From: Escherichia phage vB_EcoM_YN3
Sequence record: PV763136.1
Length of the DNA stretch: 64,000 bases
Reading direction: 5' to 3' (one strand)
The notes below the pieces were generated by a model that had not been told where the DNA came from, made no database searches, and saw only the letters and a program-made list of their open reading frames with translations. This document shows positions 2,837 to 9,133 of this stretch, piece after piece. Position numbers and translations under genes: made by a program. The stretch's first letter is position 1, and the number at the start of each line of letters is the position of its first letter.

Positions 2837-4021
2837 TCAAGCTTTAGCTAAAATGGCGCTAAACTCTTCACCAAACTCTTTTACAATCTTCATCAGGTTT
2901 GGGTATGCTTTGATCAGCCGAGCAACGATCTTGTCCCGGCCTTTACCAATAAGTAAGGCATTTCCTAGGGCGTTGGGTTTCATCATCGCCATAAAGACTG
3001 AGAATACAAAGTCTCGGTTCTCATCCTTGAAATTTTCCCAAAGGAAATCAAGGAAGTTTGCCACGCAGCTAACAAGATCTTCGTCTGAGACACTTGCATT
3101 TTCCATCATATTCCGAATAGCAATACAACCTTCAGACCCAAGAATCCACAAAATATCTGGCTGCTTAGGACCTACATACTCTTTGCAACCCCCTGCCATA
3201 ATCCGACCTATTTCTGGCAAGTTTCGTTTCTTGGTGTGGTAGGTCCAGATTTCTACCGCTGCAGTGTGACCAATAGCACCTTGCAGAAGAACACGAGCCA
3301 TAGCGTCAGAAATAATACCGCTGTCAAAATCGTGCAGGATGTCAGATGCAGCAACCCAAGATCGCGGTGTAGCAAAAGATGGACAATTAATCTCAGCCAT
3401 AGCCTCATAATTATCGATAGCTGATGGAACTCTTTTCAGATATCCAATTACAGAGGAATGCACACCATTAAGGAATGCGTAGTCCTCAATAAATACCTCT
3501 GCACTGCTTGTAACTTCTACAATGATAAAGCGGTTAGCCAGAGGGGCTTCGAGCGCTGAAAGAACAGCACCATCTGTAGCACGGTTACCTGCAGCTACAA
3601 AAACAGAGCCCTTAGGAAATGCATAGGTGCCGCACTTGTGGTCGAGCATAATTTGCATTGCAACCTTCTGCAGGTAGTTATCTGCATGAGTAAGCTCATC
3701 CAGAAAGATAATTCCGCTCCAGTCCGAGTCTGCAGGCCAAAATTCTGGAATTGCAAACACTGTGCGTGTAGTTCCATCTGCCTCTACAGGGATAGGTAGT
3801 CCAGACAAGTCAGCAGGATCTTTATCTGACAGCCGCACGTCAACCAGGTTGTCATCTCGCTCACCGAACATATTGTCTGCGATCTGCTTCATCACCTGGC
3901 TCTTTCCCACACCCATTGGTCCTAAAATCAGGACAGATCGGTTATGACGCTGGGCAAACTGAATGATAGCTGGCAACTCACGGACAGTGATTTGACCACT
4001 TTCAAATACGTTTCTTGACAT
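2837..4021 (-). CDS. MoxR-like AAA+ ATPase
   Basis: 394 aa; Walker A LILGPMGVGKSQ and Walker B IIFLDEL; size and layout typical of MoxR/CbbQ/CobS-type single-AAA ATPases. Confidence 0.65.
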   Translation of the reverse strand: MSRNVFESGQITVRELPAIIQFAQRHNRSVLILGPMGVGKSQVMKQIADNMFGERDDNLVDVRLSDKDPADLSGLPIPVEADGTTRTVFAIPEFWPADSDWSGIIFLDELTHADNYLQKVAMQIMLDHKCGTYAFPKGSVFVAAGNRATDGAVLSALEAPLANRFIIVEVTSSAEVFIEDYAFLNGVHSSVIGYLKRVPSAIDNYEAMAEINCPSFATPRSWVAASDILHDFDSGIISDAMARVLLQGAIGHTAAVEIWTYHTKKRNLPEIGRIMAGGCKEYVGPKQPDILWILGSEGCIAIRNMMENASVSDEDLVSCVANFLDFLWENFKDENRDFVFSVFMAMMKPNALGNALLIGKGRDKIVARLIKAYPNLMKIVKEFGEEFSAILAKA

Positions 4022-4290
4022 TAGTAAAAGTCCTCTACTTGTGTGTAAGTGTTTTCAAAGTTTTCCAAAACAGATATCACATCGGATCTGTCAATATCAT
4101 ACGTGACTCTCCAGTTGTACGCAACCCTTTCTGCTGTTGCCTCTTCTGGCGCTAGTCGTCTGCTGGCATAAAAGAGTGTTGGAGTACACTTTCTTGCTTG
4201 CCCTCTAACTTTCCCATAATAATATCTGTGAATATCTTTGTCAAAATTTAACTCTTTTTCTGCACGAAGTTCATATTGCTGGTATAACAT
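4021..4290 (-). CDS. hypothetical protein
   Basis: 89-aa ORF; its stop overlaps the start codon of the ATPase gene. Confidence 0.35.
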   Translation of the reverse strand: MLYQQYELRAEKELNFDKDIHRYYYGKVRGQARKCTPTLFYASRRLAPEEATAERVAYNWRVTYDIDRSDVISVLENFENTYTQVEDFY

Positions 4291-4334
4291 CTCTACTACT
4301 CCTTAAGCAGCATCCTTGCCGCCATTCCTGCCCA

Positions 4335-6661: not shown

Positions 6662-7639
6662 ATGAATCTTGAAAAATATTATACACCAGAAGAGTTAGAG
6701 CGCCTGCTCAAAAAATATAGACGCAAACAGAATAATGCACGGAAACGGGATATAGAGTTCAACCTGTCATGGGAAGAATACCTCCTATTTGGTAAAAAAC
6801 TTTTAGGAGATGGAGTGTGCGATTACACCCTTATACCTTTTGACATGCACACAGATGAAAACGGGCTGGGAAATCCTTTCTATCCATCTCTGGAGCGGAT
6901 AGATGATGAAGGTCCTTACTCAATTGATAATTGTTGTGTGGTGGGATTGAGGTGCAACGCTCTGAAGGACTGTCTGGTAGATAAAAAGACTGCAATCTTG
7001 ATAAAAGATAAAACTGATCGAAAAATTGTCCAGCAGATGATGCTCCACCTGAGCGAAGAGCGTATGGAGAAATTGAAAGGTGATTATACTTTTGAAGATT
7101 TCATCTTGCAATACGGGACAGAAGAAGATAAACTAGCACTATTTGACGAAGAGGAGGAAGATATGTCACCAATGCAGGACTTTAAAAATTTCATGGCTGA
7201 TCGTGCAGCCAACAAACACATTTCAGACATCGTAAACGAGACTGTGACAGAAGAAATTGAAGAACAGAACTCTGAAGAGGAAAAAGATCCTCAGGAGGTC
7301 GAAGAGGATATTACAGAAGAAGTTCCTGCACTGCCTGATGATATTGAGATTGCTAAGGCTTACACTTTCTATTGTCAAACGTTCTACGATGCAGGTATGA
7401 AAGTTGATCTGTCGTTCAGCCAATTTAAGAGTTCGTATATTCGCAAATGCTGTGCTTTAACTGGTGAACGTCTCGGAGCTGGACTTAAACCACTGTTGGT
7501 GACCGACTGGAATAAAGGTTTCACTAAAGGAAACTTTATGGTAGTATCTCCAATTATGGAGAAAGCTATGACAGATCTTATGAAGACCACCCGCATGACA
7601 ATGACCGAGTTGGCAGGTATTTTCAAACACGTTAAATAA
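6662..7639 (+). CDS. HNH-endonuclease-domain protein with long acidic linker and a degenerate C-terminal HNH-like repeat
   Basis: N-terminal motif DMHTDENG...PSLERIDDEGPYSIDNCCVVGLRCNALKD; C-terminal CCALTGERLGAGLKPLLVTDWNKGFTKGNFMVVS repeats the pattern without His; Glu/Asp-rich segment between. Start set at ATG 6662 downstream of the promoter. Confidence 0.45.
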   Translation: MNLEKYYTPEELERLLKKYRRKQNNARKRDIEFNLSWEEYLLFGKKLLGDGVCDYTLIPFDMHTDENGLGNPFYPSLERIDDEGPYSIDNCCVVGLRCNALKDCLVDKKTAILIKDKTDRKIVQQMMLHLSEERMEKLKGDYTFEDFILQYGTEEDKLALFDEEEEDMSPMQDFKNFMADRAANKHISDIVNETVTEEIEEQNSEEEKDPQEVEEDITEEVPALPDDIEIAKAYTFYCQTFYDAGMKVDLSFSQFKSSYIRKCCALTGERLGAGLKPLLVTDWNKGFTKGNFMVVSPIMEKAMTDLMKTTRMTMTELAGIFKHVK

Positions 7640-7651
7640 TGACAGGGGCCA

Positions 7652-9133
7652 ATGGCCCCTTCTGGAGTTTTAATGGATAGCAGAAGTTCAGAAATCATTG
7701 CCTCACAGAAAGATGATGCCCTGAGAATGTTGCAAGCTGCACGTATGTATCTTCTTGAAAAGCTGCCGTTTTATGGCACGCTACTGTCAGGGTTGCAGTT
7801 CGTAGAAAACCACACATGGTGCTCCACCATGGCAACCGACCATAAACGCATCTATTACAGTCCTGAGTTCATTATGGGGTTGGCTGATGAACGCAAGGCT
7901 ATTCTTAAGGCTTCTCTAACTGACGGGCAGTTTGAGATGGCTGAGGTTTTCTATTCCCCCAAATCTGTGAAAGAGGTGGCCTTTCTTCTGTCACATGAGG
8001 TGGGACATATTATCTGTGATCACCTGGTCCGTGGTAAAAGCTTTGAACCGGAACTGTTCAACATTGCTTGTGATCACGTCATCAACACAGGCCTTGTGGT
8101 TGACTTTAGCAAGCCTCCTTGTGTTTTCTTCCCAAAAGGGAAAAGCACTACGTTCGTAAAAGGTAAGCCTTTTGGCTTCTTAGCCAGCTGCTACTGCGAC
8201 ATGAAGTTTCATGGATGGATTGCTGAGAACGTTTATGCAGTTCTTGATAAGCAAAGAGATCAAAATAACGGTAAAAGTAAGAACGGTAAAGGTGAGAACT
8301 TTCAAGGTGATAAGCGACAAACCGATGATCACATGAGTGGGAACGGTGGCACTAGTGATGATCTTGGAAAGGCTATGGGGTATGATCAGCCACAACCTGT
8401 AATCAGCCAATCTGATAAAGATCAGGCCATGCAGGACTCTGGTGACATGCTGGAGGCAGCAATGCAAGCTTCCGGAGGTCGTTGCCCTGAGGCGGTTCGT
8501 GAGTTTGTCAAGAACAGAGGTAAGCCTGTAATCAATTATATAGACATCATCAAGCAACGCATGTTGTCTAAACGAAAGGCCGAACTGACCTACAGAAAAC
8601 CTGGTCGCCGATCTGGGTCTTTGACCAGCACAATGCGAAAAGTTGGAGCTATAAACAAGAACCAACACGTTATTGTTCCGGGTCGTAATCCGGAAAACAC
8701 TATAGATATTGTGGTGGCTTTAGACGTTTCTGGCTCGATCTCTCAAAGAACTTTAAAGAAAATGTTCAATGAAATCACCGGATTGTGCAACCTGTATAAA
8801 GAGTTTAAGGTTACAATGTTCTGTTGGTCAACTGAAGTCGGAGAGGTTAAAGTATATACTCGCGGCAACATAGACGAGATGATCAACTATGAGGTCCACT
8901 CAACATGGGGCACAACAGCTGCTTGCGTGTTCGAGTATCTGGATGCCAACATACCAAATGCAAAAGATGTCATCGTCCTGACCGACCTATACTTTGAGCA
9001 TAACTTTGAACAAAAGGCTGTTGACAACAAGTGGAAAAAGTACGATACTTTATGGGTTCTCACCGAAGGGTATAATAAAAATTATATCCCTAGCTTTGGT
9101 AAAACTGTGGAATTAATCGAGTACGCTAAGTAA
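7652..9133 (+). CDS. VWA-domain protein with N-terminal HExxH metallopeptidase-like motif
   Basis: 493 aa; HEVGHIICDH motif in the N-terminal half; MIDAS-like IVVALDVSGSIS in the C-terminal half; low-complexity linker. Confidence 0.55.
   Translation: MAPSGVLMDSRSSEIIASQKDDALRMLQAARMYLLEKLPFYGTLLSGLQFVENHTWCSTMATDHKRIYYSPEFIMGLADERKAILKASLTDGQFEMAEVFYSPKSVKEVAFLLSHEVGHIICDHLVRGKSFEPELFNIACDHVINTGLVVDFSKPPCVFFPKGKSTTFVKGKPFGFLASCYCDMKFHGWIAENVYAVLDKQRDQNNGKSKNGKGENFQGDKRQTDDHMSGNGGTSDDLGKAMGYDQPQPVISQSDKDQAMQDSGDMLEAAMQASGGRCPEAVREFVKNRGKPVINYIDIIKQRMLSKRKAELTYRKPGRRSGSLTSTMRKVGAINKNQHVIVPGRNPENTIDIVVALDVSGSISQRTLKKMFNEITGLCNLYKEFKVTMFCWSTEVGEVKVYTRGNIDEMINYEVHSTWGTTAACVFEYLDANIPNAKDVIVLTDLYFEHNFEQKAVDNKWKKYDTLWVLTEGYNKNYIPSFGKTVELIEYAK

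Follow-up and report, generated by a model that had tools for sequence, protein, structure and literature searches.

Separated on opposite strands across a divergent promoter, a MoxR-type ATPase and a VWA/HExxH protein of rV5-like coliphages are very probable partners with a possible joint role against the DS-28 defence system

Why would a MoxR-like AAA+ ATPase and a VWA protein with an N-terminal HExxH motif, which are normally encoded in one operon, stand on opposite strands of a phage genome, and what would such a pair do there? This question was raised by an initial reading (referred to as the original prediction) of a 64,000-nt stretch of Escherichia phage vB_EcoM_YN3 (sequence record PV763136.1; referred to as the window), which saw in the two proteins a functional pair split across a divergent promoter and offered a chaperone or remodelling module, or an anti-defence function, as its possible role. 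Both open reading frames (ORFs) that it named were found in place, and its separation of about 3.6 kb across a divergent promoter held up as 3.65 kb with a strand switch in between (i.e., 3,651 nt from the likely start of the VWA gene, or 3,630 nt from its longest ORF). More than 100 public phages (e.g., BP9, ECML-10, JES2013 and MaxBurger/Bas54) match the window region from 2400 to 9400 at 95–97% identity, and the window is that of an rV5-like coliphage of the genus Vequintavirus. The answer we favour, and consider likely, is that the ATPase and the VWA protein are the motor and the adaptor/effector of one two-component machine that neutralises DS-28, and that this machine is an accessory module of rV5-like phages.

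The association of both genes is clearest in viral loci. When 80 viral loci carrying the ATPase gene were inspected, 67 had the gene of the VWA/HExxH protein (hereafter DUF2201, after its Pfam family) directly downstream on the same strand with a gap of less than 300 nt, and two were rV5-like and split; in the remaining 11 the contig breaks off no more than 1.5 kb from the ATPase, leaving 69 informative loci. DUF2201 was present in 69/69 of these, although this count, like the other co-occurrence counts given here, overstates the number of independent events because the loci are phylogenetically related. A search centred on DUF2201 found the ATPase in 43 of 45 public loci. Outside the rV5-like clade (N4-like phages, other viral contigs and a bacterial chromosome) it always lay upstream and on the same strand; an opposite-strand position, 3.5–6 kb upstream, was seen only at loci at least 40% identical to the window, i.e., within the rV5-like clade. 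Cellular genomes (largely Campylobacterota, including Mb-scale contigs), scanned from the ATPase side, had DUF2201 on the same strand in 52 of 68 informative ATPase loci, with 47 adjacent. Moreover, 50,697 annotated phage records yielded the DUF2201 gene in 646 and the ATPase gene in 812, with near-identical genus counts for the two (Escherichia 210 vs. 213, Pectobacterium 26 vs. 26, Cronobacter 17 vs. 17), and tblastn with the window proteins also matched the jumbo phages slurp01, GAP32 and Atu_ph07. Through the rV5-like clade both proteins diverge in step (paired percent identities of 98/98, 72/61, 54/44, 50/47, 43/40 and 35/33), and the split-type phages examined (ca. 20 loci, 40–98% identity) kept both genes with every catalytic and MIDAS (metal-ion-dependent adhesion site) residue intact. 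The complete viral co-occurrence, together with adjacency in nearly all other lineages, supports the functional MoxR–VWA pair that had been supposed; it goes far beyond chance and is clearly not the pattern of two unrelated families that never co-occur. The two genes are thus very probably cognate partners of one ancestral module.

Two observations from these surveys stand by themselves. At a locus of Sulfurivermis fontis (L002, 3839–8445), the ATPase–DUF2201 pair is followed by a 370-aa protein without a Pfam domain and then by a ferrochelatase, with Lon nearby, and the pair looks chromosomal rather than prophage-borne. Furthermore, 16 unannotated "Campylobacter phage" records (MG065635–MG065682; C15, A12a, C7, C9 and others), listed with the host Campylobacter jejuni, are 95–98% identical over this region to rV5-like phages of E. 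coli; their host attribution looks doubtful.

The ATPase has the hallmarks of an intact AAA+ motor. Besides the Walker motifs listed in Table 1, sensor-1 (N146-R147), R164 at the arginine-finger position and sensor-2 (P219-R220) were invariant across 35–38 family sequences. Since no Pfam AAA family was matched above its gathering score by the window protein (AAA_5 17.1 bits, cutoff 22; bpMoxR 15.7, cutoff 27), its MoxR-type membership rests on homology to relatives and on fold. AAA_3 and AAA_5 were matched at E ≤ 0.001 by 16 of 35 family members at ca. 31–35% identity, and bpMoxR was likewise matched by homologues at 31–35% identity. A search of solved structures with the single sequence gave P-loop-level matches only; the family profile had midasin as its best match (1.5e-12), and the closest folds were those of CbbQ, midasin and NorQ. 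The ATPase also shows the MoxR/midasin/dynein-type fold, in which beta-hairpin inserts precede both Walker B and sensor-1. It therefore belongs to the MoxR/AAA_5/midasin clade, within which it forms its own family and not a named MoxR subfamily, and the label "MoxR-like AAA+" is justified at the level of clade and fold by the invariant motifs, the relatives with AAA_3 and AAA_5 and the midasin profile match. The protein presumably assembles as a hexameric ring.

The partner likely starts at ATG 7673, which has GGAG upstream and yields the 486 aa shared by public annotations, homologues and P0001; the ATG of the longest ORF (7652) falls within a GC-rich hairpin (7644–7660). From the N- to the C-terminus, the protein passed the Pfam gathering thresholds for PF13203 DUF2201_N (98.2 bits, 8e-28; cutoff 23.2), a domain described in Pfam as a "putative metallopeptidase", and, at the C-terminal side, for PF09967 DUF2201 (VWA-like; 44.0 bits, 3e-11; cutoff 26.4). 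A VWA protein with an N-terminal HExxH had been foreseen, and DUF2201-type VWA families had been named for checking: the partner falls in exactly that family, with both the HExxH and the MIDAS intact. H117 and D134, downstream of the HEVGH motif, were invariant like the motif itself in alignment A1 (44 sequences, down to 21% identity). A Gly/Asp/Lys-rich, disordered and low-confidence linker (residues 201–228) joins the zincin and VWA domains. Around HEVGH, the DUF2201 profile matched weakly to the minimal zincin selecase MJ1213 and to the M48 peptidases BepA and HtpX, and fold searches matched the VWA domain to NorD in NorQ–NorD complexes, to BchD and to the MIDAS domain of midasin. A search of solved structures with the single DUF2201 sequence returned nothing.

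The DUF2201 family is named very differently elsewhere. It carries the label "HNH endonuclease" in PHROGs (phrog_1314) and, by way of PHROGs, in many phage records of RefSeq (e.g., NC_022323, NC_028248 and NC_011041), and "DNA repair ATPase", "anti-sigma factor" and "tail protein" were also met. Since no HNH domain was detectable with Pfam in the window DUF2201 protein, the first of these labels looks like a propagated mis-annotation, in which HExxH was perhaps confused with HNH.

The two-protein architecture has been described before. Iyer, Anantharaman, Krishnan, Burroughs and Aravind (2021; Viruses 13:63; PMC7824862) reported a MoxR/vWA-metallopeptidase pair in "group 2.2" jumbo phages (ASV44729.1 and ASV44728.2) and proposed, as a prediction, a role in virion assembly and processing. 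The window pair has the same architecture, including the N-terminal metallopeptidase, and its tblastn matches place it in the same assemblage; the window genes, however, are separated by a divergent promoter, whereas the other phage lineages checked have them adjacent. Among solved structures, both halves come closest in fold to NorQ–NorD and CbbQ–CbbO (PDB 9qh4, 9qh6, 9qh8 and 6l1q), which follow the same logic of an AAA+ ring with a MIDAS adaptor from a neighbouring gene, but whose VWA partners lack a peptidase and whose clients are metalloenzymes (nitric-oxide reductase and Rubisco). Midasin/Rea1 combines an AAA_5 ring and a MIDAS in one polypeptide, with docking of the MIDAS on the ring extracting a protein from a complex; in contrast to the window pair, it is a eukaryotic giant single chain without a peptidase that serves ribosome biogenesis. 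RavA–ViaA of E. coli likewise consists of a MoxR ATPase and a VWA cofactor, encoded in one operon, but is described as another MoxR subfamily (with a LARA domain), without a peptidase and with a host physiological role. FtsH and Lon offer a functional analogy only, as ATP-driven unfoldase plus peptidase (with an HExxH zincin in FtsH); they carry the two activities on a single polypeptide and fall into different AAA+ clades, whereas the window peptidase domain sits on a separate VWA adaptor. Finally, Kaur et al. (2020) described MoxR-vWA-VMAP/beta-propeller ternary conflict systems and noted metallopeptidase-fused vWA proteins as rare. No conserved third component, VMAP/beta-propeller or other, was seen, and no relevant Pfam domains were present among the neighbours in the window or in loci L002, L129 and L171. 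The PADLOC defence models gave only P-loop-level matches (E > 1e-4), NCBIfam gave nothing meaningful for the window proteins, and no literature linking DUF2201 with MoxR, or MoxR with rV5, was found.

Functional evidence comes from the HIDEN-SEQ preprint (10.1101/2025.11.20.689424), which presents a saturated transposon library of Bas54/MaxBurger. Bas54 has the same layout as the window, with Bas54_0063 identical to the window ATPase at 388 of 394 residues (98%) and Bas54_0055 99% identical to the window DUF2201 protein. On K-12 both genes were non-essential, with insertions at 60/64 (0063) and 81/86 (0055) TA sites. On the uropathogenic E. coli strain CFE311, which bears DS-28, 0063 insertions dropped from 148.7 to 0.0 reads per site (log2 fold change (log2FC) –7.23, q = 0). 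According to the supplement, 0055 insertions in CFE311 dropped from 219.7 to 47.2 (log2FC –2.20, p = 0.0009, q = 0.009; ca. 4.6-fold), and the intervening genes 0056–0062, as well as 0053, 0054 and 0064, were unaffected. This neutrality of the genes flanking 0063 and 0055 argues against polar effects. Moreover, loss of 0063, or of the small and unrelated gene 0140, made the phage specifically sensitive to DS-28 cloned in K-12. DS-28, a two-gene system from the DefensePredictor study, encodes a HEPN-family nuclease of 163 aa together with a 252-aa protein of unknown function. The preprint authors treat 0063 as a stand-alone anti-defence gene and do not mention 0055. The anti-defence option of the original prediction is thereby backed by experiment for an ATPase orthologue that is 98% identical to the one in the window. 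That the ATPase is an anti-defence factor is accordingly probable, and we lean, with less assurance, towards both partners acting jointly against DS-28.

The same data sets hold further observations on neighbouring genes. Bas54_0051 (149 aa; orthologue at window 9921–10370, + strand), located in the same rightward operon four genes downstream of DUF2201, had a log2FC of –2.28 (p = 0.028, q = 0.195) in CFE311; the genes between it and DUF2201 were mostly unaffected, and 0051 may be an accessory factor or noise. Bas54_0068, a DNA helicase gene that follows rIIB just outside the window on its left side and is transcribed leftward like the ATPase gene, is another host-conditional gene: it was non-essential on K-12 and strongly depleted in CFE311 (log2FC –6.32, q = 0). 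In Extended Data Table 8 (S6/S7), the sheet "resampling_K-12_vs_CFE303" is mislabelled or a duplicate, as it repeats the CFE311 sheet in both command line and numbers, and the comparison of Bas54 with CFE303 is absent from the file.

By analogy with the characterised systems, the following sequence of events can tentatively be proposed. Early in infection, both genes would be transcribed from the divergent promoters. The DUF2201 protein would then dock through its VWA domain onto the ATPase ring, as in NorQ–NorD, CbbQ–CbbO and midasin, and its MIDAS ion would capture an acidic residue of the target. ATP hydrolysis would remodel or extract this target, which the tethered zincin domain might then cleave. 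The target could be a DS-28 component, its activating signal, or something that its activation needs. We infer that the two proteins interact physically and that the DUF2201 protein itself acts against DS-28; the combination of remodelling and proteolysis appears the likeliest route, although we hold it with less than even confidence.

Several points weigh against joint action of the two proteins on DS-28. The main difficulty is the weaker phenotype of the DUF2201 gene, i.e., the ca. 4.6-fold depletion of 0055 in CFE311 vs. the complete loss of 0063 insertions, and the partners in characterised MoxR–VWA pairs are usually equally required. The adaptor/peptidase could merely enhance an activity that the ATPase keeps alone, 0140 could substitute as adaptor, or the two proteins could be partly uncoupled. 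In addition, the second DS-28 countermeasure named by the preprint authors is bas54_0140 and not 0055, and the depletion of 0055 was seen in the natural host CFE311, which carries other systems as well (e.g., Gao_Tmn). The experimental support stems from a preprint, and the peptidase assignment from sequence profiles only, with fold searches giving VWA matches only. As for the pairing, DUF2201 was absent within ca. 5.8 kb in 16 of the 68 cellular ATPase loci, mostly of Sulfurovum, and one viral DUF2201 locus (L016) had no ATPase within 10 kb and no ATPase fragment by tblastn. The 16 solo loci suggest that the ATPase family can be solo, or split, in cells too.

The solo cellular loci are L129, L132, L142, L148 and 12 other Sulfurovum/Campylobacterales loci. 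In L129 the neighbours are an unrelated 475-aa protein, ArsB and CorA. For the solo Sulfurovum ATPase, the protein encoded upstream was considered as a divergent DUF2201 and rejected (hhalign probability 0.1). For L016 no close annotated phage relative was found; its nearest annotated relative is Salmonella phage 40, a poor assembly in which the ATPase is broken into two mislabelled coding sequences.

Among the alternatives, the one that best survives holds that the partners became uncoupled after the split, with the ATPase, together with Bas54_0140, taking on the anti-DS-28 role, and DUF2201 working elsewhere or as a stand-alone VWA-peptidase. Such a history would account for the widely different effect sizes in CFE311 (–7.23 vs. 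–2.20) and for 0063 and 0140 being the authors' DS-28 countermeasures, and it is in line with the separate transcription units in which the genes now stand and with the cellular ATPases that lack an adjacent DUF2201. We nevertheless consider it fairly unlikely: the ca. 20 split-type loci retain both genes with all catalytic and MIDAS residues and diverge in step, no phage locus with enough sequence had the ATPase without DUF2201, and both genes were depleted in one host in which all intervening genes were neutral.

An improbable reading takes the pair as a device for metal-cofactor insertion or host-enzyme remodelling in the manner of CobS/CobT, NorQ/NorD or CbbQ/CbbO, serving metabolic takeover. 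The closest solved folds (CbbQ and NorQ for the ATPase, NorD and BchD for the VWA domain) and the ferrochelatase two genes downstream at one bacterial locus speak for it. However, no family-specific domain of CobS/CobT, NorQ/NorD or CbbQ/CbbO (e.g., CbbQ_C) was found in either window protein with Pfam or NCBIfam, and the window neighbours are small phage ORFs; the suggestion of a CobS/CobT or NorQ/NorD type thus fell away. The intact zincin peptidase domain of the partner has no counterpart in those systems, and what the knockouts become sensitive to is a cloned defence system. Even less probable is the role of virion-assembly chaperone plus maturation protease that was proposed for the jumbo-phage homologues, even though it was published, as a prediction, for proteins of the same domain architecture (PMC7824862), by analogy with the MoxR–VWA pair of Acidianus two-tailed virus, and even though MoxR–VWA pairs are generally assembly or maturation chaperones. 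On K-12, insertions were tolerated at ca. 94% of TA sites in these genes vs. almost none in structural genes and the prohead protease gene, and the requirement is host-dependent. The dispensability of both Bas54 genes does not fit an assembly role and, taken with the location of the genes in the early region, next to rIIA/rIIB and outside the structural module, argues against an essential one. A merely coincidental placement of two unrelated accessory genes around a divergent promoter, for which only their physical separation speaks, is effectively refuted by the co-occurrence in 69/69 informative viral loci and by adjacency in distant lineages.

If the two proteins are cognate partners, their separation in the window calls for an explanation. 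The Certrevirus phages CR3, CR8, CR9, phiTE and PBES02 are members of the same subfamily (Vequintavirinae) and carry the two genes side by side in one direction. Since Certrevirus and all outgroups have them adjacent, parsimony indicates that the split is derived within Vequintavirinae; it is confined to Vequintavirus and its closest relatives, and the ancestral order was ATPase then DUF2201 in one operon. This agrees with the earlier view of a normally operonic pair split here, given the adjacency in 67/69 informative viral loci and in Certrevirus and the separate strands in the window. The rearrangement would have moved the ATPase gene into the opposite arm while both genes and all catalytic residues were kept, and the simplest guess is an inversion with a breakpoint between ATPase and DUF2201. 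The phrog_3118 gene stands directly upstream of DUF2201 in all split-type loci examined (e.g., L010, L014, L016 and L026) and is missing at L027 and L028 of Certrevirus. Apart from the pair, no shared genes were detectable between the window region and L027/L028, so that the rearrangement cannot be reconstructed from them. In phiTE (L047, 5271–5783) and P7_Pc (H38), an HNH homing-endonuclease gene sits exactly between ATPase and DUF2201, suggesting that this junction is permissive. A homing-endonuclease origin of the split was considered and dropped, the HNH protein of phiTE and P7_Pc having no similarity to the phrog_3118 protein.

The features of the locus are collected in Table 1; its promoter calls, like the terminator call mentioned below, are consensus matches and denote putative elements. 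The two sigma-70-like sites in the divergent intergenic region stand back-to-back. The strongest sigma-70-like match of the whole 7-kb region is the one upstream of the ATPase gene, which lies inside the 89-aa phrog_13164 gene and, judged by sequence, may be an ATPase-proximal promoter. Such a promoter would fit the observation that insertions in the upstream Bas54 genes 0057–0062 were not depleted where 0063 was required. The stop codon of phrog_13164 overlaps the start of the ATPase gene as TAATG (window 4019–4023, – strand), which suggests translational coupling of both genes. Besides phrog_13164, the leftward genes between the divergent region and the ATPase gene include phrog_12338, a 92-aa ORF, phrog_12908, phrog_13124 and phrog_6318. 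Both module genes sit among small early-type genes near rIIA/rIIB.

Table 1. Coordinates of the ATPase and DUF2201 genes, their motifs and the elements between them in the window.
Feature	Position	Strand	Remarks
AAA+ ATPase gene	2837..4021	-	394 aa; phrog_1297, E 4e-110; orthologue of Bas54_0063
Walker B D108-E109 in FLDE	3695..3700	-	invariant in alignments A2 and A3
Walker A/P-loop GPMGVGKS, residues 34-41	3899..3922	-	G37, G39, K40 and S41 invariant (alignment A3)
Seven leftward genes, promoter to ATPase	4021..6519	-	outside the module
Promoter-like match TTGACA-17-TATTAT	4216..4244	-	11/12 matches; ~195 nt upstream of the ATPase ATG
Divergent intergenic region, 141 bp	6520..6661	.	between the leftward operon (incl. 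ATPase) and the rightward operon (incl. DUF2201)
Sigma-70-like site TTGACT-17-TATAGT	6588-6560	-	10/12 matches; consensus match only
Sigma-70-like site TTGACA-17-TAAGAT	6602-6630	+	10/12 matches; consensus match only
phrog_3118 gene	6662..7639	+	first of the rightward genes, followed directly by the DUF2201 gene; outside the module
DUF2201 gene	7673..9133	+	486 aa; orthologue of Bas54_0055; longest ORF from 7652
HEVGH motif H108-E109-H112	7994..8008	+	predicted zinc-binding/catalytic; invariant in 44-sequence alignment A1
MIDAS motif DVSGS (D351, S353, S355)	8723..8737	+	with T414 and D438; all invariant in A1

Some neighbouring genes deserve a comment of their own. PHROGs calls phrog_13164 an "ATPase", which is untenable for an 89-aa protein without a Pfam match. 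The phrog_3118 protein is labelled "anti-sigma factor", "Srd-like decoy" or "HNH" in public records; its N-terminal part (residues 30–140) matches PHROGs named endonuclease VII, Srd anti-sigma factor and sigma-70 decoy, and is followed by an acidic linker and then a second domain. Its orthologue Bas54_0056 was dispensable, and neutral in CFE311. A gene for a CwlJ/SleB-type cell-wall hydrolase (window 1897–2397, – strand; Hydrolase_2 2e-19 in Pfam) with a hydrophobic signal-like segment at its N-terminus lies between the ATPase operon and rIIA/rIIB, and a strong terminator-like hairpin (2418–2433) stands between it and the gene that follows the ATPase.

Part of this picture was already known, i.e., the phage MoxR–vWA-metallopeptidase architecture (Iyer et al. 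2021), the anti-defence role of the ATPase (from the preprint) and the labels "MoxR ATPase" and "metallopeptidase" in many GenBank records. New are the conserved DUF2201 partner of the rV5-like ATPase, which was hidden by a lineage-specific split, and the derivation of this split within Vequintavirinae. New, too, is the recognition that published data already show the partner depleted in a DS-28 host, a link not drawn by the authors. The module is carried by hundreds of phage genomes in several major lineages under chaotic labels (e.g., "HNH endonuclease", "DNA repair ATPase", "anti-sigma factor" and "metallopeptidase"), and no function was tested before the 2025 preprint, which tied the ATPase alone to DS-28 evasion. 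An obligate VWA-metallopeptidase partner provides a directly testable mechanism for the anti-DS-28 activity, and with it a second gene that has a phenotype in existing data.

If the two proteins indeed act together against DS-28, they would represent an energy-dependent, proteolytic mode of counter-defence, and a rare MoxR–VWA pair with an identified client. A speculative extension, which we regard as rather unlikely as it stands, is that the ATPase–DUF2201 module is a widespread but hitherto unrecognised counter-defence class, i.e., an ATP-powered, MIDAS-targeted "anti-defence protease" that would extract and cleave HEPN-type or other abortive-infection effectors or sensors. Such a class would span rV5-like, N4-like and jumbo phages, and the cellular versions in Campylobacterota and Gammaproteobacteria may have a related role in quality control or conflict. 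Were this true, the rV5-like split would let the two halves be regulated, or partnered with other proteins such as Bas54_0140, independently. As rV5-like phages are part of phage-therapy collections, the determinants of their host range matter, and this module may be one of them.

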